A stretch of DNA of 63,481 nt, the filler included, from Folioceros fuciformis (lineage: Eukaryota): assembly GCA_049999805.1 (NCBI GenBank). It is 4 parts of 3 records of this genome, joined end to end, with 100 filler letters (N's around TTAATTAATTAA, not from the genome) between each part and the next. Parts side by side here need not be neighbours in the genome. Positions count along the whole stretch, not along the records: positions 28,337 to 48,697 come from JBNGIO010006283.1; 3 more parts are not named here. One strand, written 5' to 3'. Positions 15,941 through 50,699 of the stretch are shown in pieces. Each line of letters starts with the position of its first letter. Position 1 is the first letter of the stretch. The position numbers and the translations under genes are program-made. Under the pieces are notes generated by a model, which was not told the DNA's origin, did no database searches, and saw only the letters and a program-made list of their open reading frames with translations.

Positions 15941-16367
15941 CCTTGCTCGAAATTCCCCTCCTGCCCTCCCGCCTTGTGCTGGATCTTGGTCTCGCTGCCG
16001 TGTAATGTCCGCTGGCTCGTCTCAAGACGAGTGCATCTCATCACGAAATGTAAGTGCGTCCGAGAGGAACGGCCGTCTGTGAGACCGAAAGAGTGATAAA
16101 TTGACCGATGCCAGTTCATTTCGAGCCCTCACAAAACATTCACTAAGGAAACCTGAGGGCTGCAGTAGGCATGATGTCGATGCTGCGGTCCAAGGAAGGA
16201 GAGAAGTGTGATGAAGAAGGAACAAATAACAAGGAAGGACAAGGACTACGTTGGACGTACATACGTGTCCAGGAAGCGCGGTCTATCCGGGTTGGGACGG
16301 AGTGTCCAGGCCCACTTGCACCCTTGGTCGGTCCAGATCTCAAGCTCAGTGGAACCTTGAGCTTCTG

Positions 16368-19300
16368 ATGGGCACCCATCTAGCCGTGCTGGATTTTCAA
16401 CAAGGGATGAAGGGGCTTTCTGCTTCCGCTGCATCAACTGCTGGGAGTGCAGCGAGGACCGGAATTATGTCTGAGAATGCACAGGTTGCCCAGATGTTTT
16501 GCAAAGAGGGACGGCTGGACAAGGCGCTGGTCTGCTTGCACCAGGAGGAGCTCGTACCTTCGGTCCACATATACAAGACCCTGTTGCAGGCATGCATGAA
16601 GAGGAAGGCACTTGAAGAGGCCAGGCAGGTGCATGCTCATCTAGCTAAGCATGGGTTGGAGTCCAACAGGATTTTGGGGGATCTCCTTGTCTCCACTCTC
16701 GTTAGCTGTGGGAGCCTTGTTGATGGGCTGAAGTTGTTTCGTAGACTGTCGAATCCAAGTGCTGTCTCCTGGACAGCCATCATTGCAGGCTACTGTGACA
16801 GTGGACAGTATCTGCGAGCGCTCTCATGCTACGAGCAGATGGTGAAACAAGAAGGTGCAAAGCCTGACACTCATACTTTTGTCACCTTGCTGAAAGTCTG
16901 CAGCCGGTTGGAAGACCTGGAGGTGGGAAGACGCATTCATGCGGATGTTGTGGGGCACGGGTTCGAGTCCAATGTATTTATCGCTAGTGCTCTGGTTAGC
17001 ATGTACGCAAAGTGTGGGAGCATAGAGGATGCGGAGCTTGTGTTTCATGCCTCATCCCAACGGAATGCTGTGTGCTGGAATGCCATAATTGCCGCTTATG
17101 CTCAACACGGCCAAGGGGAGATGGCCTTGCGGACTTTCTGGCAAATGCAAGAGGAGGAAAATGTTAAGCCAGATACGCGTACGTTTGTCAGTGCTCTCCA
17201 AGCATGTGGGAGCCTGGCCGAAAAATTGGAGGGTGGGCTTGAGGAAGGGGATACTCTGAGAGAGGAGACCTTGCAAGTCGGAAGGAGATTACATGCTGAA
17301 GCTACAGCAGGAGGTTTTGAATCAGATGAGTTCGTCCGAAGCGCTTTGGTTAGCATGTATTCCAAGTGTGGAAGCATCCTGGATGCACGGCAGGTGTTTG
17401 ATGGATTGACCCGGCGCACTTTAGTGTCTTGGAATGCAATACTTACAGCATATGCCAAGAAGGAGCAAGGAGACAAGGCTTTGGAAGTTTACCGGCAAAT
17501 GCAAAAGGAAAGGGTGAAGCCAGATGGACGGACTGTATGCAGTGCTCTCCAAGCCTGCAGCAGCATTGCAGACGGGTCAGTTGAGGACTGGCAGGGTGTG
17601 AAGGTGGTGTCCCTGCGAATTGGGAAGGCAATTCATGCGGATGCTGTAAGGCATGGACTGGAACTCGACACGTTTGTCGGGTGTGCCTTAGTCAGTATGT
17701 ACTCAAAGTGTAGGAGCATAGCGGATGCACAGCATGTGTTTGACAGATTTCCCCACCAGAATGTGGTGTCTTGGACTGCCATGATTGCTGCATATGCTCA
17801 GCAGGGGCAAGGAGCAAGGGCCTTGCAGATGTTTTCTCACATGCAAGAGGCAGGCGTGAGGCCAAATGCGCGGACATTTGTTGCTGCTCTACAGGCATGC
17901 ACCTCCCTTGCAGAAGTGGAGGGGATTTTCCTCGTAGATGGCCAGGGGGTGAAGTTAGAGTCCCTGCAGACAGGGAGGGAAATACATGCTAGAGCTCGGG
18001 GCCTGGAAATGGACATATTCGTCGGCACAGCTTTGATCAGTCTGTATGCCAAGTGTGGAAGCATTAAGGATGCAGAACTGGCTTTTGATGCACTGTCCCA
18101 TCGTAACGTCGTCACCTGGAGTGCTATGATCGCAGCGTATGCAGGGCTTGCACAGGGCGAGAGGGCCCTGCAAGTCTACAGGCAGATGCGAAGGGCCGGG
18201 GTACGTCCAAACTCTTGGACATTGGTTGGTGCCCTCCAGTCATGCGCCCTTCTTGCAGAAAGGGAGGAAAGCACATTTGTGGACGGCCGTAGTGTCAAGC
18301 TGCAGTCCCTGCTAATTGGGCGTGAGCTTCATGCTGAAGCTTGTGTGAGGGGCTTACAAACAGACTTGTTCGTGGCCAGTAGCTTGGTGAGTACGTATGC
18401 CAAGTGCGGGAGCATCAAGGATGCAGAACAGGTGTTTGGCCTTCTGTCCCAGCACGATGCAGGATCATGGACTGCCATGATTTCGGCATACGCTCAGCAG
18501 GGTCAAGGAGATAAAGCTTTGCAGCTCTATGCTAAGATGCAAAGTGCAGGTGTGAAGGCGGATGTGGCCACCATTGTGAGTGTGTTGGAAGCGTGCAGCA
18601 GCCTGGGAGCTCTGGCTGCGTGCAGGCGAATGCACCAAACGATTCTTGACAGCGGATTAGAGTGCAGTTCTTTCGCAGCAACCAGTCTCATTCATGCGTA
18701 CGGCAAGTGTGGGAGCATGGGGGATGCCCAACTCGTGTTCAACTCTCTCCCTCACCCCGATATGGTCTCGTGGAATGCCCTTATTGGCGGGTATGCTCGA
18801 GCCGGATGCTCAGACATGAGCGTGGCATCTTTCGAGCTCATGTGCCGGCAGGGTGTGAGGCCGGACAAAGTTACGTTCCTCGCACTTCTGTCCGCGTGCA
18901 GTCATGGGGGAATGGTGGACAAGGGACTGGAGTACTTCGAAAGCATGACCAGAGATCATGACCTCCGTGCAGACCTGGAACATTACGCGTGCGTGATCGA
19001 TCTCGTTGCTCGGGCCGGGCTCCTTTGCAAGGCAGAAGAGTTGCTTTCTCAAATGCCCATGGTCCCTGATGGTGCAGTGTGGCTTTCTGTGCTAGGTGCC
19101 TGTCAGAAGCACGGAAATATGTCGCTCGCTACTCGAGCCTTCAAAGAGGCTGTGGCTCTACAACCTAGTCAAAGTGCCGCATATGCTCTCATGTCGAACA
19201 TCTGTGCCGATGCTGGCCGGCATGACGCAGCCAACGAGATCGATGAGCTGAGACGGGACGCCGATGCGTGGAAGAAGCCCGGCCAGAGCTGGATCGAGTG

Positions 19301-19409
19301 CGGACAAGAGGTCCACACATTTTTGGTGCGAGATGGCAGCCACCAACACAAGCTGCCTGTGTACGAATTCCTAGACCGTCTGAACGACGAGATCAACGAC
19401 TGTAACTGA
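16368..19409 (+). CDS. PLS-class PPR protein, E1-E2-E+ type (PG box, no catalytic DYW core); organellar RNA-editing specificity factor
   Basis: Intronless ORF, first ATG at 16368. Repeated P-L-S triplets (SWTAMIAAYAQ / TFVSALQAC / LVSMYAKCGS), then P2-L2-S2, E1-E2 and WKKPGQSWIE..HTFLVRDGSH; stop before any HxE/CxxC. Confidence 0.93.
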   Translation: MGTHLAVLDFQQGMKGLSASAASTAGSAARTGIMSENAQVAQMFCKEGRLDKALVCLHQEELVPSVHIYKTLLQACMKRKALEEARQVHAHLAKHGLESNRILGDLLVSTLVSCGSLVDGLKLFRRLSNPSAVSWTAIIAGYCDSGQYLRALSCYEQMVKQEGAKPDTHTFVTLLKVCSRLEDLEVGRRIHADVVGHGFESNVFIASALVSMYAKCGSIEDAELVFHASSQRNAVCWNAIIAAYAQHGQGEMALRTFWQMQEEENVKPDTRTFVSALQACGSLAEKLEGGLEEGDTLREETLQVGRRLHAEATAGGFESDEFVRSALVSMYSKCGSILDARQVFDGLTRRTLVSWNAILTAYAKKEQGDKALEVYRQMQKERVKPDGRTVCSALQACSSIADGSVEDWQGVKVVSLRIGKAIHADAVRHGLELDTFVGCALVSMYSKCRSIADAQHVFDRFPHQNVVSWTAMIAAYAQQGQGARALQMFSHMQEAGVRPNARTFVAALQACTSLAEVEGIFLVDGQGVKLESLQTGREIHARARGLEMDIFVGTALISLYAKCGSIKDAELAFDALSHRNVVTWSAMIAAYAGLAQGERALQVYRQMRRAGVRPNSWTLVGALQSCALLAEREESTFVDGRSVKLQSLLIGRELHAEACVRGLQTDLFVASSLVSTYAKCGSIKDAEQVFGLLSQHDAGSWTAMISAYAQQGQGDKALQLYAKMQSAGVKADVATIVSVLEACSSLGALAACRRMHQTILDSGLECSSFAATSLIHAYGKCGSMGDAQLVFNSLPHPDMVSWNALIGGYARAGCSDMSVASFELMCRQGVRPDKVTFLALLSACSHGGMVDKGLEYFESMTRDHDLRADLEHYACVIDLVARAGLLCKAEELLSQMPMVPDGAVWLSVLGACQKHGNMSLATRAFKEAVALQPSQSAAYALMSNICADAGRHDAANEIDELRRDADAWKKPGQSWIECGQEVHTFLVRDGSHQHKLPVYEFLDRLNDEINDCN

Positions 19410-19682: not shown

Positions 19683-22600
19683 TTAATTGAAATGCCGTCG
19701 AAGTTCGTTCAGAAGAGAGTACAAGGGGGCTTCATTTTGATGCCGAGGGTTTCCTACAAGGAACACGTGCATGCGGTGTTCATGCTCAATCCACGTCTGG
19801 CCAGGCTTTTTCCATGCACCTGCGTTTCGTCTCAGGGCATGAATCTCCCTGGCTTGCCTCCACAGGCCAGCAGAAGCATAAATGTTGGACATTAGAACAT
19901 ACGGTGCAGCTTGCCTTGAATCTAAATCTACAGCGCCATCAAAGGCTCGCTTCCCCAGTTCAAGATTACCATGCTTTTGGCATGCACCCAACAGGCACAG
20001 CCACAGCGAGAAATCAGGCTGCATCGGCATCGATCGCAGCAGCTCTTGTGTTTTGCTTATTAGCCCTGCACGGCCAAGCAGATCCATCACGCACAAATAA
20101 TGCTCTAACTCGGGACTGACACCATGAAGTCTTGTCATCCTTACAAAATACTCCAATCCTTCATCCACCATTCCAGCATGACTGCACGCGGAGAGGATTG
20201 CCACAAATGTGACACCGTCTGGTTCAACACCAGCACCACACATTTGCTCGTAGCATTTGGTAGTCGTCTCATAGTATCCTGTTCGTGCATAGCCACCGAT
20301 AAGAGTATTCCATGAGACCACATCTGGGTGTGGGAGAGCGTCAAACACGGATTGGGCATCCACCATGCTCCCACATCTGCCGTATGCATGTATAAGACTG
20401 TTTGCGACAGAAGAACTGCACTCCAGTCCCATCTCTCCAATACTCTGATGGATGTCCACACACATGTCCAGGGCTCCACTATCACTGCAGATGTCGAGCA
20501 CAGAGAGAATTGCTGCCTCGTCGAGCTCCACATCCTCTGCTTGCATTTGTGAAAATAGGTGCAGCCCCATCTTGGCTTGATCATGCGCAGCATAGGCTGT
20601 GATCATGGCCGTCCATGCCACCACATCGCGCTCGGGCATCTGCTCAAACACTTGCTCTGCATCCTTCAGACTCCCACACTTTGAGTACATGCTAATCAGC
20701 GTGTTGCTGACAGCCACATCTGCAGCGAGACCATTCTCAGCTGCATCAGCGTGTATTTGTTTCCCTATCCGGAGGGACTTCACTTTGACGTTTCGCCCAT
20801 CCACCAAGAAGCTTACCTCTTCTTCTGAAGCGGAGCCGCATGCGTGAAAGGCGCTAACAAAGGTCTGAGCAGTTGGCCGGACATTTTCCTCTTCCATTTG
20901 TTGATATATCCTCAAACCTTGTTCTCCTTGGTCCTGCTGGGCGTATGCTGCAAGCATGGCGGTCCATGCCACTACATCCCGCTGGAGCAAACTGTCAAAT
21001 GCTTGCCGCGCATCCAGAATGCACCCACATCTAGCATACATACAAACCAAAGTGCTACCGACAAACATGTCCAATTCGCCACCCATGAGCACAGCTTCAG
21101 AATGTATTTCCTTTCCTTCCCGTAATGCCTTCACTTTCACCCTCATGCCGTTCACACGAGCACTTTCCTCGGCTTCTGCAACGGCAATACATGCCTGCAG
21201 GGCACTGACAAAGGTCCGAGAACATGGTCTGATTCCCATGTCTTGCATAACTCGATATAACTGTAAACCAGTATCACCCTGGTCCCAATGGACACAAGCC
21301 GAGAGCATCACAGTCCATGTCACGACATTGCACTCTGACAATCCATGGAATAGCTTCCGTGCATCTTCGATGCTGCCACATCTCGTGTACAGACTGAGCA
21401 AGGTATTGCATAGAAACATGTTAGACTGGAGCCCCATCCTAGCGGCTTCGGCATGTATTTCCTTACCCTTTCGAAGCAAACCCACCTTGACTGGCTTCCT
21501 GCCTAAGATTTTGATTTCTTCCCTTTCTTCAATGCTGAAACAAGCCTGAAGAGCGCTGACAAATGTCTGAGCATCTGGCCTGACACCTGCCCTTTGCATT
21601 TCCTCGTAGATCTCCAGACCTCGTTCTCCTTGATTCTGTTCGACGTAACCCGCAATCATTGCATTCCATGCCATCACATCGAGGTGGCTGAGTTGTTCGA
21701 AAACAAGTCTTGCATCCTTGACATTACCACACTTTGAGTACGTACAAACTAGATTGATGGCAACAAACATGTCTGAGTCGAACCCCAATCCAACAGCCTC
21801 GGCATGCAGTCTCTTTCCCTTCAGTAGTGACTCCAGTTTGACGAATTGTCCACCAACGGTTACAACTGCCTCCTGTTCTGAGAGAATGCTACATCCTTGG
21901 AGGGCACTGACAAAGGTCCGAGCATTCAGGGTAACCTTCTCTTTCTGCATTTCCATATAAATCTTCATCACCTTATCTCCTTGAGCATGCAGAACGTATG
22001 CAGCAAGCAGTGAGTTCCATAAAACTACATCACGCTCGGCCAAACCATCAAACACCTGCTGTGCATCCATGATGCTGCCACACTTGGAGTACATGTGAAC
22101 TAGAGCACTTGCCAGGAACATGTGCGATGCAAAGCCTCTCTCATAAGCTTCAGCATGTATCTGCTTCCCCTTATGCAACAACTCCACCTTAATACTCTGC
22201 CTGTCCACAGTTAACATCTCCTCCTTACCTGCAAGACAGCTGCATGCTTGGAAAACGCTGACAAAAGTCCTAGAATCAGGTACAAAGCCTTTGTCGACCA
22301 ACACTGCATAGGTCTGTAGGGCTTTTTCTCCTTCATCGTGCTGAACACATGCAGCAAGCATCGCATTACACACTACCATGTTGTGTTCAGGCAAGCTATC
22401 GAATACATGTTGGGCATGTTGAAATGTGCCACATTTGGCATACATGCTAATCAAAGTGCTTCCAACGAAAACATCTGACACAAAACCCATGCTTGAAGCG
22501 TGGGCATGTATTTGTTTCCCCCGTTGGAGAGACACCACCTTCAAATGCTGCCCTTCCAGAACGACACTCTTCTCCTTCTCGGCAAGGGTGCCACAGGCAA

Positions 22601-23423
22601 GGAGAGTGCTTACGAATGTCCAAGTATCTGGTATAACCCCTTCGTGTCGCATTGTCTCATAAATCTGCAGAGCAAGATCGGCTTGCTGCACCTGACTGTA
22701 CGCTGCCAGCATCACATTCCAGGACACCAAATCTCGATGGGTCAACCCATCAAAGACACTTCGAGCATTGTTTATGCTCCCACACTTTGTGTACATCCTG
22801 ATAAGAGAGTTAGCAACAAACGGGTTCGAGTCAAACCCATGCATCAGGCTGGCAGAGTGGATCCTCTTCCCCTCTTCCAAGTCCTCCAACCTACTACATG
22901 CTTTGAGCAAGCTGACGAGTGTGTACGAACTGGGCAGCACACCGTCCTGTTGCATCTGCTCATAACACGAAAGAGCCTGCCGAAATTGTCCAGCATTGCA
23001 GTAACCAGAAATGATGGCTGTCCAAGAGCACACAGTCCGGTCTGACAATCTCCGAAACACCTCAAGCCCATCAGCAAGGCACCCACATCTCATGAATGTG
23101 GTGACAACAAGGTCGCCCAGAAACCCGTTGGACTCAAATCCATGGTGTTTCAAGTGCGCATGTACCAACTTGGCCTCTGCAAAGCTCCTGGTCCTCGAGC
23201 ACGCCTGTAATAGGATTTTGTACATGCGCGGCGACGGCAAAGTATTTGATTGTTCCATGTAGAGCACAGCGAGGTCCAGCCGTCCCTCCTTGCAGAGAGC
23301 CTCTACTTGATCGTCTCCACAGGCGAGTTCTGCTCTTGAAGTCCATCGCGGCTGAAAATGTCGCAACCTGTGCAGACACTCCCAGCGCGGTGGGTTGGGA
23401 GCTGAGACACATAAATTGGCCAT
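19683..23423 (-). CDS. PLS-class PPR protein, E1-E2-E+ type, ~1246 aa
   Basis: Intronless ORF with about ten PLS triplets, ending WKKPGQTWIEHEHRMHVFLVGNPRH...; Arg-rich N-terminus compatible with an organellar transit peptide. Confidence 0.93.
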   Translation of the reverse strand: MANLCVSAPNPPRWECLHRLRHFQPRWTSRAELACGDDQVEALCKEGRLDLAVLYMEQSNTLPSPRMYKILLQACSRTRSFAEAKLVHAHLKHHGFESNGFLGDLVVTTFMRCGCLADGLEVFRRLSDRTVCSWTAIISGYCNAGQFRQALSCYEQMQQDGVLPSSYTLVSLLKACSRLEDLEEGKRIHSASLMHGFDSNPFVANSLIRMYTKCGSINNARSVFDGLTHRDLVSWNVMLAAYSQVQQADLALQIYETMRHEGVIPDTWTFVSTLLACGTLAEKEKSVVLEGQHLKVVSLQRGKQIHAHASSMGFVSDVFVGSTLISMYAKCGTFQHAQHVFDSLPEHNMVVCNAMLAACVQHDEGEKALQTYAVLVDKGFVPDSRTFVSVFQACSCLAGKEEMLTVDRQSIKVELLHKGKQIHAEAYERGFASHMFLASALVHMYSKCGSIMDAQQVFDGLAERDVVLWNSLLAAYVLHAQGDKVMKIYMEMQKEKVTLNARTFVSALQGCSILSEQEAVVTVGGQFVKLESLLKGKRLHAEAVGLGFDSDMFVAINLVCTYSKCGNVKDARLVFEQLSHLDVMAWNAMIAGYVEQNQGERGLEIYEEMQRAGVRPDAQTFVSALQACFSIEEREEIKILGRKPVKVGLLRKGKEIHAEAARMGLQSNMFLCNTLLSLYTRCGSIEDARKLFHGLSECNVVTWTVMLSACVHWDQGDTGLQLYRVMQDMGIRPCSRTFVSALQACIAVAEAEESARVNGMRVKVKALREGKEIHSEAVLMGGELDMFVGSTLVCMYARCGCILDARQAFDSLLQRDVVAWTAMLAAYAQQDQGEQGLRIYQQMEEENVRPTAQTFVSAFHACGSASEEEVSFLVDGRNVKVKSLRIGKQIHADAAENGLAADVAVSNTLISMYSKCGSLKDAEQVFEQMPERDVVAWTAMITAYAAHDQAKMGLHLFSQMQAEDVELDEAAILSVLDICSDSGALDMCVDIHQSIGEMGLECSSSVANSLIHAYGRCGSMVDAQSVFDALPHPDVVSWNTLIGGYARTGYYETTTKCYEQMCGAGVEPDGVTFVAILSACSHAGMVDEGLEYFVRMTRLHGVSPELEHYLCVMDLLGRAGLISKTQELLRSMPMQPDFSLWLCLLGACQKHGNLELGKRAFDGAVDLDSRQAAPYVLMSNIYASAGLWRQAREIHALRRNAGAWKKPGQTWIEHEHRMHVFLVGNPRHQNEAPLYSLLNELRRHFN

Positions 23424-23554
23424 CACCGTGTAACCATAGCGAACGAAAGCTGTTTAGGTGCTGTTCCCACTACACCTTATCTTCCACATTCTCTCTCTTT
23501 TCAGGCATTTGGAAAGGCTTGAACGTATCATGGCAAGCAGTTTCCAGAGCCTCC

Positions 23555-26500
23555 ATGGAGCTGCAAGCACAGATGAAGGGGCGTCAGGTTTACACAAGTT
23601 TCTGGACATCTGGAAAGGAAAGGTAAGTTGATGCAAGAAATTTGCTGTCTCCACACTTGGTCATCTCACGAGATGGTTGAATGCAGGACAAGCTTTGTCT
23701 TGAGTGAAGCTGAAGCGCAGAGAATATGCAAAGAAGGGATGGTCCAGGATGTGCTAGGAGTCATGGACCAACAGGGAGAGGTGCCATCGGTACAAATGTA
23801 CAAGAATCTGTTGCAGGCATGTTCTAAACAGAAGGCCCTGGCTGACGCCAAGTTGTTACATGTCCATCTGGTCAACAATGGATTAGAATCCAGCAGATTT
23901 TTAGGCGACCTTGTAGTCACCACACTAGTGAATTGTGGGAGCCTTGATGACGGAATCCAGGCGTTCAGAAAATTGTCTCGCCGAACTGTTTTCTCTTGGA
24001 CAGCTGTCATTTCAGCGTATAGCAACGCTGGGAAAAGCCGGCAGGCTCTAATGTGCTATCAGCAGATGCAGCAGGATGGAGTGCTTCCAGACGCCTATAC
24101 ATTCGTGAGCTTAATCAAAGCTTGAAGTAGGCTGGGAGATCTGGAAAAGGGCCAGCAGGTACATGCTGCTGCTTTGAAGCATGGGTTGGGTTCGGATATC
24201 TTTGTCGGCAACAGCTTGATGAGTATGTACGCAAATGCGGGAGCCTCAAGAGTGCTCGGGGTGTGTTTGATGGATTCTGCCACCGTGATTTAGTGTCCTG
24301 GAATGCAATGTTGGCTGCATATTCTCAGCAGCGGCGTGCTTAGGGCTTTATTGGCAAATGAAAGAGGAAGAAGTTCGGCCAGATCCTCGGACGTTTGTCA
24401 GTGTTCTCCAAGCTTGTTCCGCTCTTGCAGAGCAGGAGAAAAGCGCACTTATGGGAGGGCAAGACCTCAAAGTCATAGCGTTGAGCAGGGGACAGGAAAT
24501 CCATGCTGAGGCTGCTAGGCGGGGTTGCGACTTCGACCCATTTGTGGGGAATTCTTTAGTCAGCATGTATGCCAAGTGTGGGGATCTTGTGTATGCACAA
24601 CATTTATTTGACAGATTGCCCCAGCATGATGTGGTTTCATCGAAGGCTATGATAGCTGCCTATGCTCAACAGGAACACGGAGAAACTGCCTTGAAGATTT
24701 TCAAGAAAATGCAACATGAGGGCATCGTGCCTGATTCATGCACCTTTGTCCGTGCTCTTCAAGCATGTGGCGCCGTTGCAGCACAGGAAGAAGCTACACC
24801 TGACAAGCTGGAAAGCATCAAGTTGGAGTCACTGCAGAGGGCGAAGAAGATGCACGCTGCAGCTGTAAGTATGAATTTCGAATCAGTTGCCTCTGTCCGC
24901 AGCAGCTTAGTTAGTCTGTATGCAAAGTGTGGGAGCATCGGGGATGCTGAACTGGTATTCGGCAGATTTGGCCAGCATGATGTGGAGTCATGGAATGCCA
25001 TGATTGCAGCATATGTTCAGCAACGACAGGGAGGGAAAGCTCTGCAGATTTATTTGCAGATGCATGATATGGGGGTTATACGAAATGCCAGGACTTTCGT
25101 TAGTGCCCTTCACGCATGCAGTACCATAGCCGAACAGGAAGACGGAGAACTTTTGGATGGCCGGCTTGTGAAACCTGAGTCACTCCAAAATGGGAAAAGA
25201 ATGCATGCTGAAGCTGCTAGATTGGGATGTGTAACAGACATATTTGTTGGTAACTCTGTAGTCAGTATGTATGCAAAGTGTGGGAGCACTGAGAAATGCT
25301 GAAGAAGTGTTTTACAGATTGTCTTACCGGGATGCTGTATCCTGGACTGCAATCCTCACAGCTTATACTCAGCGAAATGATGGAAAGACAGCCATGGAGA
25401 TATTCCAGCAAATGCTCGCGAAGGACATAGAACCAGATGCCAGAACCTTTGTCGGTGCTCTTCAAGCCTGCAGCATCCTGGCAGAAAAGGAGAACGGCAC
25501 GCTTGTGGGTGGGTTTGCGGTGAGGGCTGAGTCTCTGCTGAAGGGGAAGAAAATACATGCTGAAGCAGCAGGAGGGGATTTGGTTTAGACATTTATGTCT
25601 CTAATGCGCTGGTCAATATGTATTCAAAGTGTGGGAGCATCCAGGATCCAGAACAGGTGTTTAACAAATTATCCGAGCGCAATGTCGTGACGTGGACTAC
25701 CATGATTTCAGCATACATACAAGAGAAACAGCCGGAAAGAAGTTTGCAGCTCTTCTGGCAAATGCAAGCAGAGGGCATTAGGCCAACGGCTCACCCTTGT
25801 GGCATTGCTCTGCAGGCATGTGGTGCCATTGCAGACAAGGAGAGAAGTACACTTGTGGAAGGTCACAGTGTGAAAGTCGAGTCCCTCCAGAAGACGAAAG
25901 AAGTGCATACATCAGCTGTTGCTCGAGGTTCTGAATCTGACATTTCTGCGGGTAGCACTTTGGTTAGAGTGTACGCTGTATGCGGGAGCATTCATGATGC
26001 TGAACAGTTGTTTGACAGATTTCCCCAACATGATGTCGTGTCCTGGAGTGCCATGATTGCAGCATACGCACAGCAGCATCAAGGAGAAAAGTCCTTGCAA
26101 ACTTATGGAAGCCTGCGAGAAGCCGGAGTGATACCCAACGCTCAGACGTTTGCCAGCGCCCTCCAAGCATGCGGTGGCATTGCTGAAATGGAAAAAAAAC
26201 ATTTCTGTGGAAGGGCAAGGAGTTAAATTGGACTCGCTGCACAAGGGGAAAACGTTGCATGCTGATGTTGCCGACATGGGTCTTGAGTCTGATGTCTTTG
26301 TCGGTAGCGCGTTGATTCGGATGTATGCGAAGTGTGGAAGCATCGTGGATGCCGAACATGTGTTTGACAGCCTCTCCCAGCGCAACATTGTATGCTGGAA
26401 TGCAATGATTGAGGGGTATGCCCAGCACGGTGACGGGAAGAAGGCTCTACAAATATTTGCCGACATGCAAGGAGAAGGCTGGGAGTCAGATGAAGCTACG

Positions 26501-27331
26501 TATCTGTCTGTTCTGGAAGCGTGCTGCGTTACAGGATCCTTAGATATCTGCAAGTGCATGCACCGGAGAATCGTTGAGAGTGGACTCGACTGCAACCTTT
26601 CTGTAGCAAACAGTCTGATACATACGTATGGCAAATGTGGAAGCGTGGTGGAGGCTCAGAACGTGTTCGACTCACTTGCTGAGCCCGATGTGATTTCATG
26701 GAATACACTAACTGGTGGATATGCCCAACAAGGAAGCTACGAGACAAGCAGACATTGTTATGAGGCCATGTGTTGTGCAGATGTGAGACCAGATAAAGTT
26801 ACTCTGACGATGCTGCTGTGCGCATGCAGTCATGCTGGCAAGGTGGATGAAGGGTTGGAGTACTTTGAGGGCATGACTAGGGATCACGGCATTGCTGCAG
26901 AGCTGGAGCATTACGTGTGCCTGCTTGATCAGGTTGGCAGAGCAGGGCTGTTAAACAAGGCGGAGGAATCGCTCTCCACTATGTCAATGCAGCCTACGTT
27001 TACCATGTGGCTGTGCTTATTGGCTTCATGTCAGAAATATGGTAATGTGGTGCTGGGAAAGTATGCGTTTGATGGTGCCTTGAGCGTAGACACAGGACAA
27101 GCAGCACCTCATGTGTTGATGTCAAACATGTACAGTGACGTGGGCATGTGGGAACATCCAAAGGCAATGGATGATTTGCGACGAAAAACAGGCGCATGGA
27201 AGAAGCCTGGCCAGGCATGGTTTGAGCATGAGCAACAAGTGCACATGTTTCTAGCGGGGGATAGAAGGCATGAACAAGAGGGTGAGACGTATGAGTTACT
27301 GAGGGAGCTGGACTCGTGTAGTGGTACGTGA
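23555..27331 (+). pseudogene. Disrupted paralog of the neighbouring PLS-E+ PPR genes
   Basis: Continuous PPR homology over ORF pieces 23628-24125, 24358-25302, 25271-25588, 25618-26226 and 26150-27331. In-frame TGA at 24123-24125 replaces a conserved Cys; about five frameshifts/deletions; ends WKKPGQAWFEHEQ. The 5' start is uncertain. Confidence 0.85.
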
Positions 27332-32146: not shown

Positions 32147-33838
32147 TCAATCGAATCCAAGACGGAGCGAGAGATCTAATTTAGGGGGGGCCGGGAAAGG
32201 GTCTTCGCGAGGCCTGTCCGCCCCAAATCCTTGAGCATTTCCAAGATCAGGGCGAGCTTTACAAGCAAGATCAGTATTGTTGGCGACGAAGCGTTGGTGG
32301 GGCTGGGCTGCAGCGGCAACAGAGGTCGCCACTGCCCCTCTCAACGTTCCTTCAGGGCGGGGGCCAACTAAAGCGGCCTGCCAGCTTGCGCGGGTATCGT
32401 CCTCGTGGAAGGAGGGCACAATCGATCTGCCCAAGTGCTCGGCAGCCTCGAAACGCGCCCCTCCTCCTCCACCACCACTACCACCTGCACCTCCACCTCC
32501 ACCTCCTTCACGGCCTCCACCTCCGACTCCTGCAGCCACTACAACTCCTCGACTTGGCGTCCTGCCGTGGCCGTTAGTGTTGCTGCTGCTGCTGTTGGGA
32601 GCCGCGGCAGCACCATACTTGCCTGGGCCCGGGTTAAAGCTCATGTACGACTGCCTGGGCCAGCCCGGGAGCAGGGCATTAGCTGGTCGAGGCAGAGGAA
32701 CACAATCGGCCATGAGGGGCTGGTTGCTGCCGTAGCCATGGTGCTGAAGCGTGGCCGAATGAGCCTGCACGCCCAGGGTTCTGTGGCTCACACCGCTAGC
32801 CCCAGCTCCCAAACCATCCAAATTTGGGTGCGGCGGCCGGGCCTGATGGTGCGGAGAGTGCTGCAGGTGGAGCGGCATTAGCCGAGGAGCCACCACCGAT
32901 CCAAAGCGCTGAGCCCGCCTCGCAGCCGTCCTCTCCCGCTTATGGGCATTCTGGTGTCCACCCAAAGCCTGCGAGCTGAAGAACTTCCTCTGGCAGAAGT
33001 TGCAGGAGAAGACGCGCTGCTCAGCTGCTGCTCCTCCTGCTGCTACTGTACCTCCTCCTGCCGATAACTCTGCGCCTGCAGTCCCCGTAGCTGCAGCTCC
33101 TCCACCACCACCACCACCTCCTCCTCCTCCTCCCGCCGCGGCGTCGCTGCTGCTCCCAAAAGGGCTGTCATCCACATTCAAAGAGGCAGAGTTCTCCCCC
33201 TCGTGAGAACGCCGGCTGCCCTCGTCCGACCGAGTTGGGCTGCTGGAGGAAAGGGATCTCCAGCTGCTGTGGCACTCCACATCCGACGTGGCCACCTCTT
33301 CCCGAGATCCCGTCCCTGCCGCCTCCTCCTGCTGGTGGTGCTGCTTCCAAGTCGCCAATGGTGATACCGCCGCCTCCGCCGGCGCAAAGCATGCGTTCTC
33401 CTTCACACAAGATGCGGCTTCCCCTTGCCCTTGCCCATGCCCTTGCTCTAAGCGGCTGCTGCTGCTGACGGGCTCACGCTCCTCGGCGGCGGTGCTCCTG
33501 CCGAAGGCGTCCGAGTGCAACCTCTTGGATTTGTGCTGGCTCTGCTGCTGCTGCAGCTGCTGAGCATCACCAATCCGCAGACTCAAATCCAGGAACGATT
33601 TCACATGTACATCCTTGACGATCACCACATCCCTGCCAGCCTCCAGATCCAGGAAGAGATGATGGCCCTGGAGCACCGCCGCCGATGCTCCAGCCTGCCC
33701 AGATGTTGCTGCTCCTGGTCCCCCTCCGGCCCCGGCGGCGACTGTGGCTGCAACCCTAAGGCAGGAGGAGGATGCCCAGGGGAGCGCGGAGTCGGCCAAC
33801 ACGCTGTTGGGCTGCCCTCCTTCGGGAAGGCTTCTCAT
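32147..33838 (-). CDS. Single C2H2 zinc-finger protein (QALGGH, ZFP/GIS/SUPERMAN-like group) with EAR repression motifs, ~563 aa
   Basis: [39 protein letters not shown]-terminal LDLSLRL and internal LDLSLRI. First in-frame ATG is at 33838, with an in-frame TGA upstream at 33916-33914. Confidence 0.92.
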
Positions 33839-35772
33839 GTTCAAAACGGCGCGACCATCATTTTCCGATGCACCAGCTGCAGCGGCAGCGGCGTCCCTGC
33901 CTCTGCCTGCCGCTCATGGGTGATCCATGCTGCTGCTGCTGCAGCAGCACCGTGCACATGCGTCCCTCGTTGTTGTGGTTCTCCTTGCTCTTCGCCAGGT
34001 GCAGTGTCGGCGTCACGAGAACAAGCTGCACTTCAGCAAGCTGCTGTTGCTGTGATGGTGGTGGTAGTGGTGGTGGNNNNNNNNNNNNNNNNNNNNNNNN
34101 NNNNNNNNNNNNNNNNNNNNNNNNNNNNNNNNNNNNNNNNNNNNNNNNNNNNNNNNNNNNNNNNNNNNNNNNNNNNCTTCAAGCCTTTCTGGCTGCAACC
34201 TCGCCCACACCATCCTGCGCTCGCCACCACGCTCCTCCCTCCTGTCGTCCACACTCCCAACTCTTCACCTTCCTTTTCATTTTCTCGCAGCCCCCACTAC
34301 AACTACGACCAACAACAAGAACAACAACAACAGCGACAAGGGCGACACCAGCAACGACAACAACAACAATAGCAACTCCTCCTTTCCTAAACAAGTCCCA
34401 CCACTGTCACAAACTCCCCTTTCAACCATACGGTATCCATACACCCCACATATAATAAGTCGTCTTTCTGCTCTCTCTCTCTTACCTGGACCCTCCGACT
34501 GCTGTTACGCTAGTACCTGGCTAGCTTGGCATATACTAGCTAAAAGGGAAGTACTGTAGTTCAGTGGGTGTCTCTGCAGTGGACTTTATTACAACTGTAT
34601 CTCACCACACGACACCGCTTTTCCAGTGATCATAAAAAGCGACCCGGCACCCTTGGCTGGTCATTGGTAGGTACCAGTGGCGGTGTGAGATCGGGCCCTC
34701 TCTTGTGCAAAATATGAGTATGGAGAGAAGTCAGTCCATCTCTCCGGTCGGAGCCGTATGCAGGTAGATAGATAACAGGACTTTCAGGACTGCACGAATG
34801 CTTCCTGGGAGAGAGCTGCCCATATCCAAAGAGATTCTGCCACACGACAGGACACCAGCACAGCGCAGAGTTGGAAGGGGGGGGGGGGGGGTGGTGCAGC
34901 GGAAGGCGACGGGAGTGAAGAGAAGGCAAGGCAAGGGCAGGGAAGGAGGGACGCCCGCAAACGAAGACACACACATGTACATGGGGCAGGGAACCTGCTC
35001 GATTCAACCCGCCGCTTCCTTTGCGAAGCAGCAGGAGCTGCTGCTGCTGCTGCTGCTGTTGCTTCTCCGAGAACCCGCAGCCATGCATCTCCACTCCACC
35101 AAACGTAGGTGGTGGGTAGGTAGTAGGTGTTACATATTTGTACATCCTCCTAACTCCACTTCAGTCAGTCCGGCCCGGCTTGCTAGCTAGCACCACTGCC
35201 TGCTGCACAAACATGTCTGTCCCATGTGGTCCACTTCCCCATCTCATGTCATCCCTCCTACCAGCCGGGCGAGAAAAAAGGTCCAGGACCTGTAGATGCT
35301 GCTGACAAGAGAATCCGCTTTCCGACCGCACCGGGGCCATGCCCCCATGTTCTCTCGCAACCTCAGTTTCACAAAACAGCGTACCCCCGCTCTCAGCATA
35401 CTTAGCATGGATGATACATTCACAACAGAACGAATATGGTTAGCAATGTTCAGGCGGATCAGACACCCAACCTCCCGTGTGGCAACTGCTACCAGACCCC
35501 ATGAGAAGAAAAAAAAGCGCTGAAACGACACTCCAGAAAACTTCGTCAACTTTTGTCCTCTCCTTCCAGCCGGCCTGTCAGACATTTCGACTCCCAAAAT
35601 AAAGCGAAACCCCTATCCGCACAATCCCGGCGACAGTGTGTACCCTGGGGGCATGCAATCATCCCCCTCTCATCAAGACGTGGGTGATGGACCACCTTCC
35701 TCGCTAACGTGGCACAAAGTGTTGGTGACCGGCAAAACTTGTGAAACCCACTTACAACCCGGCCGGGGCATG

Positions 35773-38256
35773 TCAAGGTCTATCCCCACATGTACACGAA
35801 CCATCCCGGAAGCAGTGCACCCTATGTGCATCCCTGACAATTATCTCCCTCTTCTCAAGCCGTGACAGGACCTTAGTGCTACTGTGGCAGTCATCGCACA
35901 TTCTAAGATTCTTGGTGACCAGCAAACCTGTGCCTTCTGGAGTGTGGACTAGACCATACGCCAAAGCCAGCTTCTCTGCATGTCCACAAAGCGCATTCTC
36001 CTTCTCCTCCTCAGACATTATCTTAAGCACCAAATCCGTTCGTGGCATATGCCCTCCTTCCTCCTTCAACTTCATACTCACACTTCTGAGCTTGGATGAG
36101 ATATCGCACCGCTCTTCCCCAACTGTAAACTCGTGCAGCTCGTTCTTGACTTCGATGCACACCTTTGCGGGAATCTTACAGGCACCGGCAGACCTTCTCA
36201 GGCACTCCAACGCCTTCACATCTTCCCATCTACCTACATTTGCGTAAATGGTACCCAGAACAACATATGCATAAGCATTTCCAGGGTCCAATACTACAAG
36301 ATGATCAAAACATCGTCGTCCTCGTTCTACATCACGGTGGCTTTTGCAGGCATTCAACAAGGATTTCCAGCCCACGACATTGTCAAACGGCATACTTCGC
36401 ACCATACTCTCTGCCTCGTCGAGGTGGCCTGACCGTGCGAGAAGATCGATCATGCAATTGAAATGATTATCAGTGGGCGCGATGCCATAGTCTTCCACCA
36501 TCATCCTGAAAAACTCCTGGCCCTCGTGCACCAGGCCAGCATGACTGCATGCCACAAAAAGACATATGAATGTTCTGTCATCTGGCTCCACACCTCGCTG
36601 ACGCATATCGGCGAAACATTGCATCGCCATTTCACAATCACTATGTTCAGCATAACCATTGAGCAGAGCAGACCACGTGACCGCATCTTTGGTCGGCAAG
36701 GCGTCGAACACCTTGCGTGCATCTGCCATGTTCCCGCACTTGGCATACATGTTCACCAGGCAATTGCCGACTAAAAGGTCCGCCTCCAATCCCACATCCT
36801 TGATCTTTGCATGCAGCTCTTTCCCATGCTGGAGAGCTCCTAAGCTGGCGCACGCTTGAAGTAGGCAGACAAAAGTAGCCTGATCGGGCGGAGTAACACC
36901 CTCCTCCTGCATGTGCCCATACAGACTGAGGGCTCCTTGGGCGAGGCCCTGGTGCGTGTACCCTGCGATCATGGCGTTCCATGTCACCACAGTCTTGCTT
37001 TCTGTGGGCAATGTGTCGAACACTCGGCGAGCATCCCCCACACTTCTGCATTTGGCATACATGTTCACCAAGCTAGTGCCAACAAAAGTGCCAAGGTGAA
37101 CTCCACTCCCCAAAACATCAGCATGCACCTCCTTGCCTGAGACTAAATCCGTCGCAGCTGCACAAGCCCCCAGCACCGCAGCAAACGTATGGTCATCCGG
37201 CTTCACAGAAGTCTCGGATTCTCGCATTTGCCGATACAGATGTATGGCCTGTGCGGGCTGCCCATGCCGGGCGTACGCCGAGATAATAGAGGACCACAAG
37301 TAGGTGTTGGGGCCAGCCACCTCGCGGAACACCTGGGCTGCTTCCTCCAACCTGCCGCATTTAGCATACATGTTCACCAGGCTGCCGCTTACGAACATGT
37401 CGGGGCTGACATCCGCGAGCAGAATGTGAGCATGAACCTCCTTGCCGGAATCCAGATCCTTGGCCATGGCACAAGCCTTGAGGACTGCCACGAACAAGTG
37501 GTTGTCCGGCTTCACACTGGACGCACCCCGCATCCGCCGATACAGCTGGATAGCCTGTGCTGGCTGGCCATGCCGAGCATGCGCCGAGATGATGGTGGCC
37601 CACATATGAGCGTCCGGAGCAGTGACGTTGGAGAACACCTGCACAGCATCCTCCAATTTGCCATGAGACGCATACATGGCAATGATGTGGTTGGCCAAGA
37701 ATGCGTCTGATGCGTGCCCGCTTCTGATAGCCAGAGCATGGATTTGCTTCCCCAAACACAGATCCTTGCACTCGATGCATCTCTTGAGCAGGCGGTAAAA
37801 GAGAGAAGCGGGAAGAATCGAGGTGGTGCGCAGCACCGAGACATGCAATGCTTGGACAGCCTCCCTGAGCTCCGCTCTGGATCCCCCCGCTGCCCCTCCG
37901 CCTGGCTCCTCCGGCAGCTGCCATTCCCTGCAGCCTGGCGTGCATAGCCACAATGCCTGCTTGGAGGTCTTGTGCCTGAAGTCAGGATGATTCACACTCA
38001 GCTTGACGGCTCTTTGGTCCAACCACTGCAACGGATCCGAGAGGAAGTCTTGCCACAAGAGCTCCTGCTGCCGCTCCTTGCCACCGATGCTGCTGCTGCT
38101 GGCCAGGCACCTTGTTCGTTTCTTTCCTGCTCCCGCGGCTGCCGGTGCCGGGATCCTAGAACGCACACGGCCTAGCCGCTGCATCCACCACGTTCGCTCC
38201 TGTAGAGCTCCCGCATTGCCAGCACCTGGCCGCGGGAGCACACCCTCCATCTCCAT
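35773..38256 (-). CDS. PLS-class PPR protein with N-terminal PDF (OSB-type) motif and C-terminal DYW:KP-variant domain; candidate U-to-C RNA editing factor, 827 aa
   Basis: Intronless; about 14 PPR motifs plus E1/E2; KIPAKVCIEV in place of the PG box, HAEKLA, NLRMCDDCH and a C-terminal CTCGDRP. Residues 65-112 are ELLWQDFLSDPLQWLDQRAVKLSVNHPDFRHKTSKQALWLCTPGCREW. Confidence 0.92.
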   Translation of the reverse strand: MEMEGVLPRPGAGNAGALQERTWWMQRLGRVRSRIPAPAAAGAGKKRTRCLASSSSIGGKERQQELLWQDFLSDPLQWLDQRAVKLSVNHPDFRHKTSKQALWLCTPGCREWQLPEEPGGGAAGGSRAELREAVQALHVSVLRTTSILPASLFYRLLKRCIECKDLCLGKQIHALAIRSGHASDAFLANHIIAMYASHGKLEDAVQVFSNVTAPDAHMWATIISAHARHGQPAQAIQLYRRMRGASSVKPDNHLFVAVLKACAMAKDLDSGKEVHAHILLADVSPDMFVSGSLVNMYAKCGRLEEAAQVFREVAGPNTYLWSSIISAYARHGQPAQAIHLYRQMRESETSVKPDDHTFAAVLGACAAATDLVSGKEVHADVLGSGVHLGTFVGTSLVNMYAKCRSVGDARRVFDTLPTESKTVVTWNAMIAGYTHQGLAQGALSLYGHMQEEGVTPPDQATFVCLLQACASLGALQHGKELHAKIKDVGLEADLLVGNCLVNMYAKCGNMADARKVFDALPTKDAVTWSALLNGYAEHSDCEMAMQCFADMRQRGVEPDDRTFICLFVACSHAGLVHEGQEFFRMMVEDYGIAPTDNHFNCMIDLLARSGHLDEAESMVRSMPFDNVVGWKSLLNACKSHRDVERGRRCFDHLVVLDPGNAYAYVVLGTIYANVGRWEDVKALECLRRSAGACKIPAKVCIEVKNELHEFTVGEERCDISSKLRSVSMKLKEEGGHMPRTDLVLKIMSEEEKENALCGHAEKLALAYGLVHTPEGTGLLVTKNLRMCDDCHSSTKVLSRLEKREIIVRDAHRVHCFRDGSCTCGDRP

Positions 38257-38729
38257 TTCTCCTCCAGTTACCCTTCTCCTCCATTACCCTGGACAAGATG
38301 CGGGATTCAACAACCCTATCTGTGCTAGACCTCCGTCCGAGTATCCTTTGCTTGGAGCCTTTGATTCAAGCATAGCTGATTTTAGAGGCCGACGAACGAG
38401 AGCAGCACAAGACTATACATGCTCTGAGACCTGGGAGGGTCTTGTTACGTCAACTAACCCTAACAACTCCCACAGCTCGCCCTTCCGAGACAGAAGGGCC
38501 TAAAGTGGTGCGTGAAGAATTCCACCAGCACCTATGGCAATCTGTTCCACATGCTCTTGAGGCTTGCTAGACGGGGCATTTGGCAGTTGTGATGACAAAG
38601 CCACACCAGACAATTGCTGACAGACGAGCAACGTCCACTCCACCTCCCAAAACACTTCAAGAGAATGGTGAGCCACAATCAGAACAAGCCCTCCCTTGTG
38701 TTCCATTTCTTGATCCAAAAAAGGCGGGG

Positions 38730-39150
38730 CCTTGACAAAGCTAGCTCATGATTCACATAGCCAGTTATCAGGCCCTTGTGTATGGTGTCACAACGTGCTC
38801 GGGCATCTGAAAGGCAAGCAAAAGCAGCACGACTTCCCGCTACGTGGCCCTCCTACTCCATCAGTCTATACACAGCCAGGGCCTCTTGGCCGAGCCCATG
38901 ACTCGCATACCCAGCCATCAGGGGACATTCCGTATCACCACAACGACATCTTTTGTTGGCATGCTGTCCAAAAAGCATGCGTGCAGCTTCCAGTCCCCCG
39001 CATGTTGCACATATTGTCCACTTAGCGGTTGCGAACTGCCAAGGTCGGTCCACTACCCCTGTGCCATGCACAGAGCTTGAAGGGCTGCAACAAAGAGTGA
39101 GCATCCGCGTTCACACGAGTACTGCATTGATTCAGTTGTAAGGCCACATG
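38730..39150 (-). pseudogene. Short, highly decayed PPR relic
   Basis: Frameshifted S/P motif remnants: CATCGGLEAARMLF ... LMAGYASHGLGQEALAVYRLME*, and LITGYVNHE. Confidence 0.6.
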
Positions 39151-49141: not shown

Positions 49142-50699
49142 ATGCAGATTGTGGAGGAGGTGAAGCAACTGGGCCACATCGTCGTCCCCGTCGCGGCAGT
49201 GAATTGCGTGGTGTACCTGCGGGCAATGATCTCGGTGCTGTGCCTGGGGCGGCTGGGCGNNNNNNNNNNNNNNNNNNNNNNNNNNNNNNNNNNNNNNNNN
49301 NNNNNNNNNNNNNNNNNNNNNNNNNNNNNNNNNNNNNNNNNNNNNNNNNNNNNNNNNNNCGTTCGGGTCTAAGAACTGGGCGCTCATGGGCGTGACGCTG
49401 CAGCGCACCATCCTCATCCTGCTGTCGGCGTGCCTGCCCATCGGGCTGCTCTGGCTCAACCTGGAGCGAATCCTACTAGCTCTGGGGCAGGACGCCAGCA
49501 TCACGGCCGTGGCGGGCACCTATTGCTTCTACTCGCTCCCTGATCTGCTGGCCAACAGCTTGCTGCAGCCGCTGCGGGTGTATCTGCGGTCGCAGGGCAT
49601 CACCACACCCATGATGTGGTGCAGCGCGCTGGCAGTGCTCATCCACATTCCTCTCAACGTGGTGCTGGTGTTCGTGCTTAAGCTGGGCGTCCCGGGGGTG
49701 GCCATGGCCGCTGTGTGCACCAACTTCAACATGGTCTTCTTCCTGGTGGCCTACGTCCGCTGCTCGCGCGCGTGCCGGCGCACCTGGCACGGCTGGTCGC
49801 GCGCCGCGCTCAAGGAATGGTGGCCGCTGCTCTCCTTGGCCCTGCCCTCCTGCTTCGCCATCTGCCTCGAATGGTGGTGGTACGAGATCATGACCCTCCT
49901 GGCCGGCTACCTCCCTGAGCCCCAGGTGGCCGTGGCCACCACTGCCATCCTCATCCAGACCACCTCACTCATGTACACCTTCCCCCTGGCCCTCAGCTCC
50001 TCCGTCTCCACCCGGGTGGGGAACGAGCTGGGCGCCGCCCGCCCCGCCCGCGCCCGCACCGCCTCCCTCGTGGCCCTGGCCTGCGCCCTCGCCATCGCCC
50101 TCGTCAGCGTTGCCTGGACCACCCTGCTGCGCAACCGCTGGGCGCATGTCTTCACCACCGACCAGAGCGTGCTGGCTCTGGCTGCCGCCGTCATGCCCAT
50201 CATGGGCCTCTGCGAGCTGGGCAACTGCCCCCAGACCACGGGCTGCGGTGTGCTCCGGGGCAGCGCCCGCCCCGCCATCGGCGCCCGCATCAACCTCGGC
50301 TCCTTCTACTTCCTGGGCACGCCGGTGGCTGTGGCTCTCGCCTTCTGGTTCAAGATAGGGTTCGGCGGCCTCTGGTACGGCCTCTTGGCCGCACAGGTCG
50401 CCTGCGCCTCCTCCATCCTCTACGTCGTGCTCCGCACCGACTGGGCCTTCGAGGCGGCCAGGGCCAAGCTTCTCACCTCAGCGGCGGCGGCGGCAGCGGC
50501 AGCGGCGGCACCACCTCCTCCCTCCTTCGAGTTCCCCGACGTCACGGACCCGGATCTGGACGAAGAAACAGGCCTGCTGCGCCTGGACCAACTCTCGTAC
50601 CGCGACCACGAGGAGCAACAAGCAAACGGTTTCCGAGGCTGTCCCATGCAGTTGTTTGCAGTCAGCTCCGAAATCGAGACGGAGGAGGAGGAAGCTTGA
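49142..50699 (+). CDS. MATE/DTX transporter of the intron-poor DTX48-56-like clade; interrupted by an assembly gap at 49260-49359
   Basis: [22 protein letters not shown] before the gap; [36 protein letters not shown] and [21 protein letters not shown] after it. The true start codon is uncertain. Confidence 0.92.

Follow-up and report, generated by a model that had tools for sequence, protein, structure and literature searches.

A hornwort gene whose product is probably a reverse RNA editing factor was found in a window of 63,481 nucleotides from Folioceros fuciformis (assembly GCA_049999805.1; four parts of three records joined end to end with filler between them, with positions counted along the whole stretch). 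The gene lies on the minus strand at 35773 to 38256, in the part taken from JBNGIO010006283.1 (28,337 to 48,697). It is an intronless pentatricopeptide repeat (PPR) gene of the PLS class with the full C-terminal extension, and is a complete and well-preserved PPR-DYW:KP gene. The encoded protein, referred to below as the query, carries the complete catalytic and zinc-binding residue set. As judged by sequence comparison, it belongs with near certainty to the DYW:KP class and is a DRH-like body with a GRP-type terminal proline. We infer that it is targeted to an organelle and infer the direction in which it edits: the product is probably a nuclear-encoded, organelle-targeted, site-specific editing factor of the PPR-DYW:KP type, DRH-like, and most likely active from U to C. 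The features of the gene are the following.

35773..38256, minus strand: the PPR-DYW:KP gene (P0001), a single-exon frame of 827 codons with its stop codon at 35773-35775, from the list of open reading frames (ORFs) and the translation
38104..38256, minus strand: the first 51 residues, in which R, S and A abound, a presumed organelle-targeting presequence
37915..38103, minus strand: a PDF-like motif, residues 52-114, LWQDF..DP..W.D.R..K....PDFRHK....ALWL (A1 profile, query 94.4 bits)
36379..37809, minus strand: the PLS tract of 14 PPR motifs, residues 150-626 (hand-set borders, alignment with 9kfx, Pfam PPR/PPR_1/PPR_2)
36178..36378, minus strand: E1 (residues 627-660, pair K/N) and E2 (661-693, pair V/C), from Pfam E_motif and hand-set borders
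35776..36174, minus strand: the DYW:KP domain of 133 residues (695-827), DRH-like by its sequence with a terminal Pro (hidden Markov models, tree and fold match)
35974..35982, minus strand: H759-A760-E761 (domain H65, A66, E67), which are a ligand for Zn1, the Ala typical of KP domains, and the catalytic Glu (aligned to OTP86 H892/S893/E894)
35911..35913, minus strand: K782 (domain Lys88), the active-site Lys (OTP86 K915), which is K in 54/54 other HAE/HCE rows
35884..35898, minus strand: C787-D-D-C790-H791, with the two CxxC cysteines that bind Zn1 and the first His that binds Zn2 (OTP86 C920, C923, H924)
35776..35784, minus strand: D825-R826-P827 in place of D-Y-W, with the Zn2 ligands C821 and C823 upstream (OTP86 C954, C956)

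The minus-strand frame from 35776 to 38256 is free of internal stops and frameshifts across its 827 codons, and M1, M3 and M25 are the candidate start codons. Borders of the PPR motifs were drawn by hand, and their register was checked against the alignment with 9kfx, a synthetic PPR-DYW protein that is the closest solved structure by sequence (residues 218-825, E = 4.6e-195). Residues 150-693 were tiled without a gap in the order L1-S1-P1-L1-S1-P1-L1-S1-P1-L1-S1-P2-L2-S2-E1-E2. The Pfam search placed PPR families along the repeat tract, E_motif on residues 640-697 (E = 3.4e-11) and DYW_deaminase on residues 735-825 (E = 6.1e-34), and K694 sits between E2 and the 133-residue C-terminal domain. 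The PLS tract, E1, E2 and the DYW-type domain are all present, which is the architecture of a PPR-DYW protein.

The first-pass annotation had placed a KP-variant domain at 35773-36177; this span runs from the codon of K694 through the stop codon and is the DYW-type domain. The strings on which that reading was built were all found in the translation: KIPAKVCIEV at residues 694-703, HEFTVGEERCDISSKL at 708-723, HAE at 759-761, CDDC(H) at 787-791, and CTCGDRP at the C-terminus. When the 133-residue domain was compared with solved DYW domains, it matched 9kfx (E = 3.7e-37), 7w86 (E = 1.3e-32) and 7o4e (E = 2.3e-30), and these E-values, together with the Pfam match, indicate that the resemblance to DYW domains is not due to chance.

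To count individual features, the domain was aligned with 253 other DYW domains, made up of 54 HAE/HCE rows and 199 HSE rows; the definitions of KP, DRH and GRP follow the available text of PMC9478123, PMC11845758 and PMC11332814. A deletion of 3-4 residues that removes xHP is described there as a KP feature (PMC9478123, PMC11332814), and the loss of SHP suggested for the query is real, since domain positions 20 to 26 hold 7 residues, against 11 in 187 of the 199 HSE rows. The same 7-residue stretch occurs in 30 of the 54 other HAE/HCE rows. Ala or Cys in place of the Ser of HxE is a further KP feature (PMC11845758, PMC11332814, in the sections available), and the HAE column set was invariant in 38/38 KP rows of a second alignment (A2). 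The residue just before CDDCH, M786 (Met92), is the KP-typical Met, where PG domains have Val; Met at position 92 is marked as a KP trait in the accessible part of PMC9478123. The proposed replacement of the PG box by KIPAKVCIEV stood in part: the Pro is kept and there is no Gly, but the Lys of the KP pair reads Ile, with K694 one residue earlier. The query thus has I695-P696-A697 at this place, and among the 54 other HAE/HCE rows the exact KP pair was found in 33, the K in 42 and the P in 40, so that the pair is a consensus and not an invariant. C-terminal triplets were diverse among the 54 rows, one of which (P0126) also ends in DRP. Collectively, the query has the xHP deletion, HAE, a non-DYW tail, Met92 and a Pro without Gly, all of the KP type, and lacks all four PG marks (PG box, xHP, HSE and DYW tail).

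The assignment to DYW:KP was assessed further with profile hidden Markov models (HMMs) whose training rows were sorted only by the middle residue of HxE, the query being excluded. The KP-like HMM (37 HAE/HCE domains) gave the query 219.5 bits and the PG-like HMM (82 HSE domains) 155.9 bits. The resulting KP-minus-PG score of +63.6 falls among the KP training rows (33.5 to 77.3) and outside the PG rows (-87.4 to +24.5); the top of the PG range is set by P0033, a fern protein with KP-like features apart from its HSE. A maximum-likelihood tree of 95 rows and 140 columns was then built; it included the query, P0033, every HAE/HCE row except P0126, and 40 HSE rows drawn at random from the 199. Many of its forks are unresolved, and support is given as the Shimodaira-Hasegawa-like approximate likelihood ratio test (SH-aLRT). 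The query fell within a 58-row clade (SH-aLRT 96) that comprises all 54 HAE/HCE rows and 4 HSE rows with KP-like starts. The HMM scoring that the first-pass annotation had proposed therefore places the domain in DYW:KP and not in DYW:PG, and the tree and the motif counts agree.

Hornwort KP variants are reported to form two subgroups, DRH and GRP (PMC9478123, in the text available). Within the KP clade, the query lies in a 21-row subclade (SH-aLRT 89) whose members end in DRH, GRP or close variants, where it adjoins the DRH rows and stands outside a 4-row GRP clade (SH-aLRT 98). The nearest tree rows end in DRH, with identity up to 76% over 136 columns, and the terminal branch of the query (0.2) is longer than that of most DRH rows. 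A DRH HMM scored the query at 245.2 bits and a GRP HMM at 231.7 bits, and this difference of 13.5 is within the range of +10.9 to +27.7 obtained for other DRH-like rows kept out of training. The query keeps Asp131 (D825) and Lys101 (K795), both of which are replaced in GRP proteins according to the accessible part of PMC9478123; our GRP rows have Gly at the place of Asp131 and Glu, Thr or Gln at that of Lys101. Placement in the GRP subgroup was rejected on these grounds, that is, Asp131 and not Gly, a position outside the GRP clade, and the lower GRP score. Because its tail is D-R-P and not D-R-H, the query is filed as DRH-like and not as a strict DRH member.

Catalytic roles were mapped by alignment onto the OTP86 DYW structure, with residue roles taken from the available text of PMC7611903. 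The Zn1 ligands H65, C93 and C96 and the catalytic E67 are present (OTP86 H892, C920, C923 and E894), as are the Zn2 ligands H97, H120, C127 and C129 (OTP86 H924, H947, C954 and C956). In the 38 KP rows of A2 the zinc and catalytic columns and that of the DYW-specific Lys88 were invariant, save that of C127, which was nearly so. E2 and the domain were modelled together with AlphaFold2 on the basis of A2; the model reached a mean predicted local distance difference test score (pLDDT) of 85.6, and its best fold matches were DYW domains: 9kfx_A with E = 1.5e-16 and a template modelling (TM) score of 0.79 by query length, and 7o4e_B with a TM score of 0.85 by target length. Confidence in the model is lowest immediately ahead of HAE, in the segment equivalent to the finger of the gating domain.

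Hornwort DRH proteins have the same architecture and the same 133-residue domain length as the query, and share with it the KPAKACIEV-type and HEFTVGEER-type starts, HAE, TKNLRMC.DCH, and Asp131 with Lys101; they differ in having a terminal His and the Lys of the KP pair, where the query has Pro and Ile. Hornwort GRP proteins and the designer domains KP2 and KP3 resemble the query in the terminal Pro and in overall KP features, whereas residues 131 and 101 set the GRP proteins apart from it, as described above. Among hornwort-derived domains, U-to-C activity has been demonstrated for KP2 and KP3 alone in the available text of PMC9478123. KP6 and its variants share HAE, Lys88, CxxC and the 133-residue length with the query, which matches the variant KP6u at C6, A116 and V119 and the variant KP6c at G64 and V113; KP6, however, is a fern consensus and not a natural protein, while the query is a natural gene. 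DYW:PG domains (OTP86 7o4e/7o4f, DYW1 7w86 and synthetic 9kfx) have in common with the query the deaminase fold, the gating domain, the Zn1 and Zn2 ligands, the Glu and the DYW-specific Lys, but their PG box, xHP, HSE, Val95 and DYW tail are all replaced in it.

A close copy of the gene was found in a second organism. At about 91-93% identity, contigs from runs X4 and X16 span 36044-37989; they show 83-84 differences over 36044-36988 and 64-71 over 36962-37989, where one run has a 6-base deletion as well. Contig joints and loose ends within 36500-37600 were disregarded, as they come from paralogous PPR repeats. Among the 40 listed of 151 differences, 38 codons were touched, 23 synonymously and 15 non-synonymously, and this listed subset suggests that the gene may be under purifying selection. 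One of the 15 non-synonymous changes lies at position 37386 in codon 291, which is position 5 of motif S1-b, where the query has Gly and the X4/X16 copy has Ser; G291S is thus a between-species change at a specificity position and turns the pair G/N into S/N. The X4/X16 copy is far closer than any protein paralog found, since the best homologue in the protein collections matched at 70% over residues 640-827 (the last 188 residues) and none exceeded 54% over residues 1-700. A search of the same collections for a full-length ortholog returned repeat-driven matches only, the best at 54% (P0012), and neither an ortholog nor a named hornwort protein; the query's own sequence is absent from these collections. 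Over residues 640-827, the 20 best homologues were Logan proteins ending in DRH, GRP or variants, and the best named matches were from ferns, at 48-49% identity. The ESM Atlas gave only generic DYW and E-motif clusters at the level of Streptophyta. A 4196-base contig of run X1 spans 34890-39085, gene flanks included, without a difference, and transcription is not inferable from it.

The activity predicted for the query in vivo is U-to-C, and we regard this as fairly probable. The PLS tract would bind single-stranded RNA immediately 5' of its target nucleotide, or of a few such nucleotides, and the C-terminal zinc domain would edit the base at position 0, most probably from U to C. In the chemistry proposed for KP domains, a Lys attacks C4 of the uridine, giving a Schiff base, which is hydrolyzed to cytidine (PMC11332814, available text); in the query, E761 and a zinc-bound water would bring about this resolution to cytidine. 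KP domains are reported to be found only among hornworts, lycophytes and ferns, which are the lineages that edit U to C (PMC11845758, PMC9478123 and PMC13386178, in the parts available). The designers KP2 and KP3 (hornwort GRP consensus) and KP6 (fern consensus) edit U to C in Escherichia coli and HEK293T cells, and this editing requires the HAE Glu, CxxC and Lys88, as stated in the accessible portions of PMC9478123 and PMC11845758. The query also has C6, T17, A116 and V119, the residues that pushed KP6 toward U-to-C.

Several points weigh against a U-to-C role. Natural KP proteins are without measured activity (PMC11845758). Of 7 designers, 3 edited in E. coli or HEK293T cells, and KP1, built mainly on DRH proteins, is absent from these 3 (PMC9478123, available text). 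The designers stall at a protein-RNA crosslink (PMC11332814, in the text available), and in the query Ile takes the place of the Lys in the KP pair. The X4/X16 contigs could also stem from a close paralog, and the count of synonymous and non-synonymous codons covers the 40 listed of 151 differences. The query might also be a KP-class factor that deaminates C to U in vivo, or acts in both directions, and is not a dedicated U-to-C editor; this we consider unlikely. C-to-U deamination by KP6 has been seen both in vitro and in HEK293T cells, and KP domains are said to retain every feature needed for canonical deamination (PMC9478123 for the cells, PMC11332814 for the other points, as far as their available text goes). 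The failure of KP1 to edit U to C fits with such a factor, as do the single changes E64G, L113V and F133H, which shift KP6 toward C-to-U (PMC11845758): the query has G64 and V113. Yet G64 and V113 are the natural KP consensus toward which KP6 was mutated, and together with C6, T17, A116 and V119, which the query also has, they make up that consensus. Lys88 is retained, KP genes are confined to lineages with U-to-C editing, and KP2 and KP3, built on hornwort GRP proteins, gave U-to-C and no C-to-U in the available text of PMC9478123.

With 1,583 to 2,308 PPR genes per hornwort genome, many of them arisen by dispersed duplication (PMC13386178, available text), the query could instead be one of many young PPR duplicates, a redundant or decaying paralog that has no editing role or only binds RNA. 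The odd residues at specificity positions (A/D, G/N and T/T), the loss of the KP Lys, and the terminal branch longer than that of most DRH rows all fit this explanation, which we nevertheless hold to be quite improbable, given 827 codons free of stops and frameshifts, the retention of all 9 catalytic and zinc residues, the 91-93% identical copy in a second organism, and the ratio of 23 synonymous to 15 non-synonymous codons in the listed subset. A pseudogene was rejected on account of the open frame and the conserved residues. The idea that the query is a normal cytidine deaminase factor of the DYW:PG type that by chance carries a few substitutions finds some footing in the overall fold and the zinc ligands, all common to PG domains, and in the PG HMM, which still gives 155.9 bits. 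It is nonetheless extremely improbable, since the query has no PG pair, no xHP, HAE and not HSE, Met92 and no DYW tail, the KP HMM is ahead by 63.6 bits, and the domain is nested in the KP clade. A DYW:PG identity was rejected as contradicted by the HMM difference, the tree and the motif counts. The preferred reading is thus that of a native factor which probably edits U to C.

The pairs of residues at position 5 and the last position were read from the PLS tract in order as YD, ND, AD, VD, GN, SD, AG, TT, ND, VD, ND, SD, IT and NN, followed by KN in E1 and VC in E2. Several N/D and S/D pairs had been claimed, and with hand-set borders N/D was found in 3 motifs, S/D in 2, and N/N in 1. In the PPR code, ND specifies U, SD specifies G, and NN specifies C or U. 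With the register in which L2, S2 and E1 face positions -5, -4 and -3 (PMC9478123, available text), the canonical pairs would predict U at positions -16, -9 and -7, G at -12 and -6, and a pyrimidine at -4. Canonical pairs occupy 6 of the 14 PPR motifs and amount by arithmetic to about 11 bits, or about one chance match per 2,000 positions. A hyper-editing hornwort organelle has a thousand or so editing events (PMC12548569, in the part available), and about 11 bits would single out a site among these events but not in the whole transcriptome. The expectation that the pairs allow target prediction thus holds for ranking sites within a known editome, whereas the pattern cannot find a site alone.

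The N-terminal 149 residues hold a second element. Pfam gave only a chance-level match to DUF3606 there (E = 0.075), and none of its models catches the PDF-like motif at residues 52-114. A profile built from nine stretches of this motif (A1) matched 266 proteins at E <= 0.001. In one of them, P0402, a precomputed SSB-family domain is followed by two copies of the motif (65.8 and 87.1 bits), and by the A1 profile the motif of the query is homologous to these two copies. From the architecture of P0402 and the form of the motif, residues 52-114 are a candidate OSB-type PDF motif. The query would share with OSB proteins the pattern W..D.R..K....PDF.HK....LW, with P-D-F present; in OSB proteins the motif comes after an oligonucleotide-binding (OB) fold, whereas the query has a single copy at the N-terminus of a PPR protein. 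The available text of PMC6963530 describes the PDF motif as a 50-residue motif of organellar OSB proteins that binds single-stranded DNA. Of 486 fetched proteins, 127 (the query included) carry the motif; 110 of these pass a crude PPR test (4 HAE, 35 HSE and 71 without a DYW end) and 17 fail it, some of the latter being short fragments or holding 2-11 tandem copies. Most of the 126 other carriers are PLS PPRs from lycophytes, mosses, ferns or hornworts, with KP as well as PG types among them, and the motif stands N-terminally in 1-3 copies in many PLS PPRs of Diphasiastrum, Sphagnum, Calypogeia, Adiantum and relatives. A literature search of limited coverage returned no paper describing the PDF motif on PPR proteins. 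Tentatively, and with more doubt than conviction, we suggest that the motif may be an accessory module for single-strand binding or docking in the editing factors of seedless plants, in lineages that have no MORF proteins, and that the gene may encode a natural KP enzyme intermediate between DRH and GRP.

Outside the PPR-DYW:KP gene, the window contains the following features.

16251-19409, plus strand: a PLS PPR ORF of the E+ type, which stops about 45 residues into a PG-type DYW domain
19683-23426, minus strand: a PLS PPR ORF of the E+ type, with the same early end, after about 45 residues of a PG-type DYW domain
26150-27331, plus strand: a PLS PPR ORF of the E+ type, again stopping about 45 residues into a PG-type DYW domain
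24358-25302, plus strand: a PPR fragment of 314 residues, just upstream of the ORF at 26150-27331
61205-63094, plus strand: a copia-type gag / pre-integrase / integrase ORF
49386-50699, plus strand: an ORF for a MatE transporter, probably a single exon from a larger gene
15053-15940, minus strand: a DUF716 ORF

In addition, a long low-complexity ORF with runs of Gly, Ala, Ser and Gln lies on the minus strand at 32147-33844, and a segment of it resembles what we take to be the QALGGH signature of plant C2H2 zinc-finger proteins. Between this zinc-finger-like ORF and the PPR gene there is a run of N (an assembly gap) at about 34115-34217, which appears as runs of X in the translations. The three E+ ORFs end in a partial PG-type DYW stretch, AWKKPGQ.WIE...H.FL..., from which the deaminase core is absent, and the fragment at 24358-25302 and the ORF at 26150-27331 may be one broken or spliced gene. 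E+ genes are enriched exclusively in hornworts, according to the available text of PMC13386178, which also gives the PPR gene numbers cited above. These neighbours and the DRH and GRP tails of the nearest homologues point to a hornwort nuclear genome as the likely source.

The query is one of many hornwort KP genes, and its subgroup is one without demonstrated activity, the designer KP1 having failed. Its importance is modest, given how numerous genes of this kind are in hornwort genomes. The PDF-motif fusion, if undescribed, adds a small piece to what is known of the composition of editing factors in plants without MORF proteins. U-to-C editing is nevertheless the one pyrimidine transition without an assayed native enzyme, for which only consensus designers work, and these stall at a crosslink (PMC11845758 and PMC11332814, in the portions available). 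Since native enzymes are unassayed and the designers stall, every undamaged native KP gene whose target can be predicted is usable material for learning how the reaction is completed in plants. The present gene is a clean candidate, being intronless, with its full set of catalytic residues and a close copy in a second organism, and the protein it encodes is a reasonable candidate for a native U-to-C editor, as predicted here. Its native domain could show whether, unlike with the designers, U-to-C editing runs to completion and the RNA is released.

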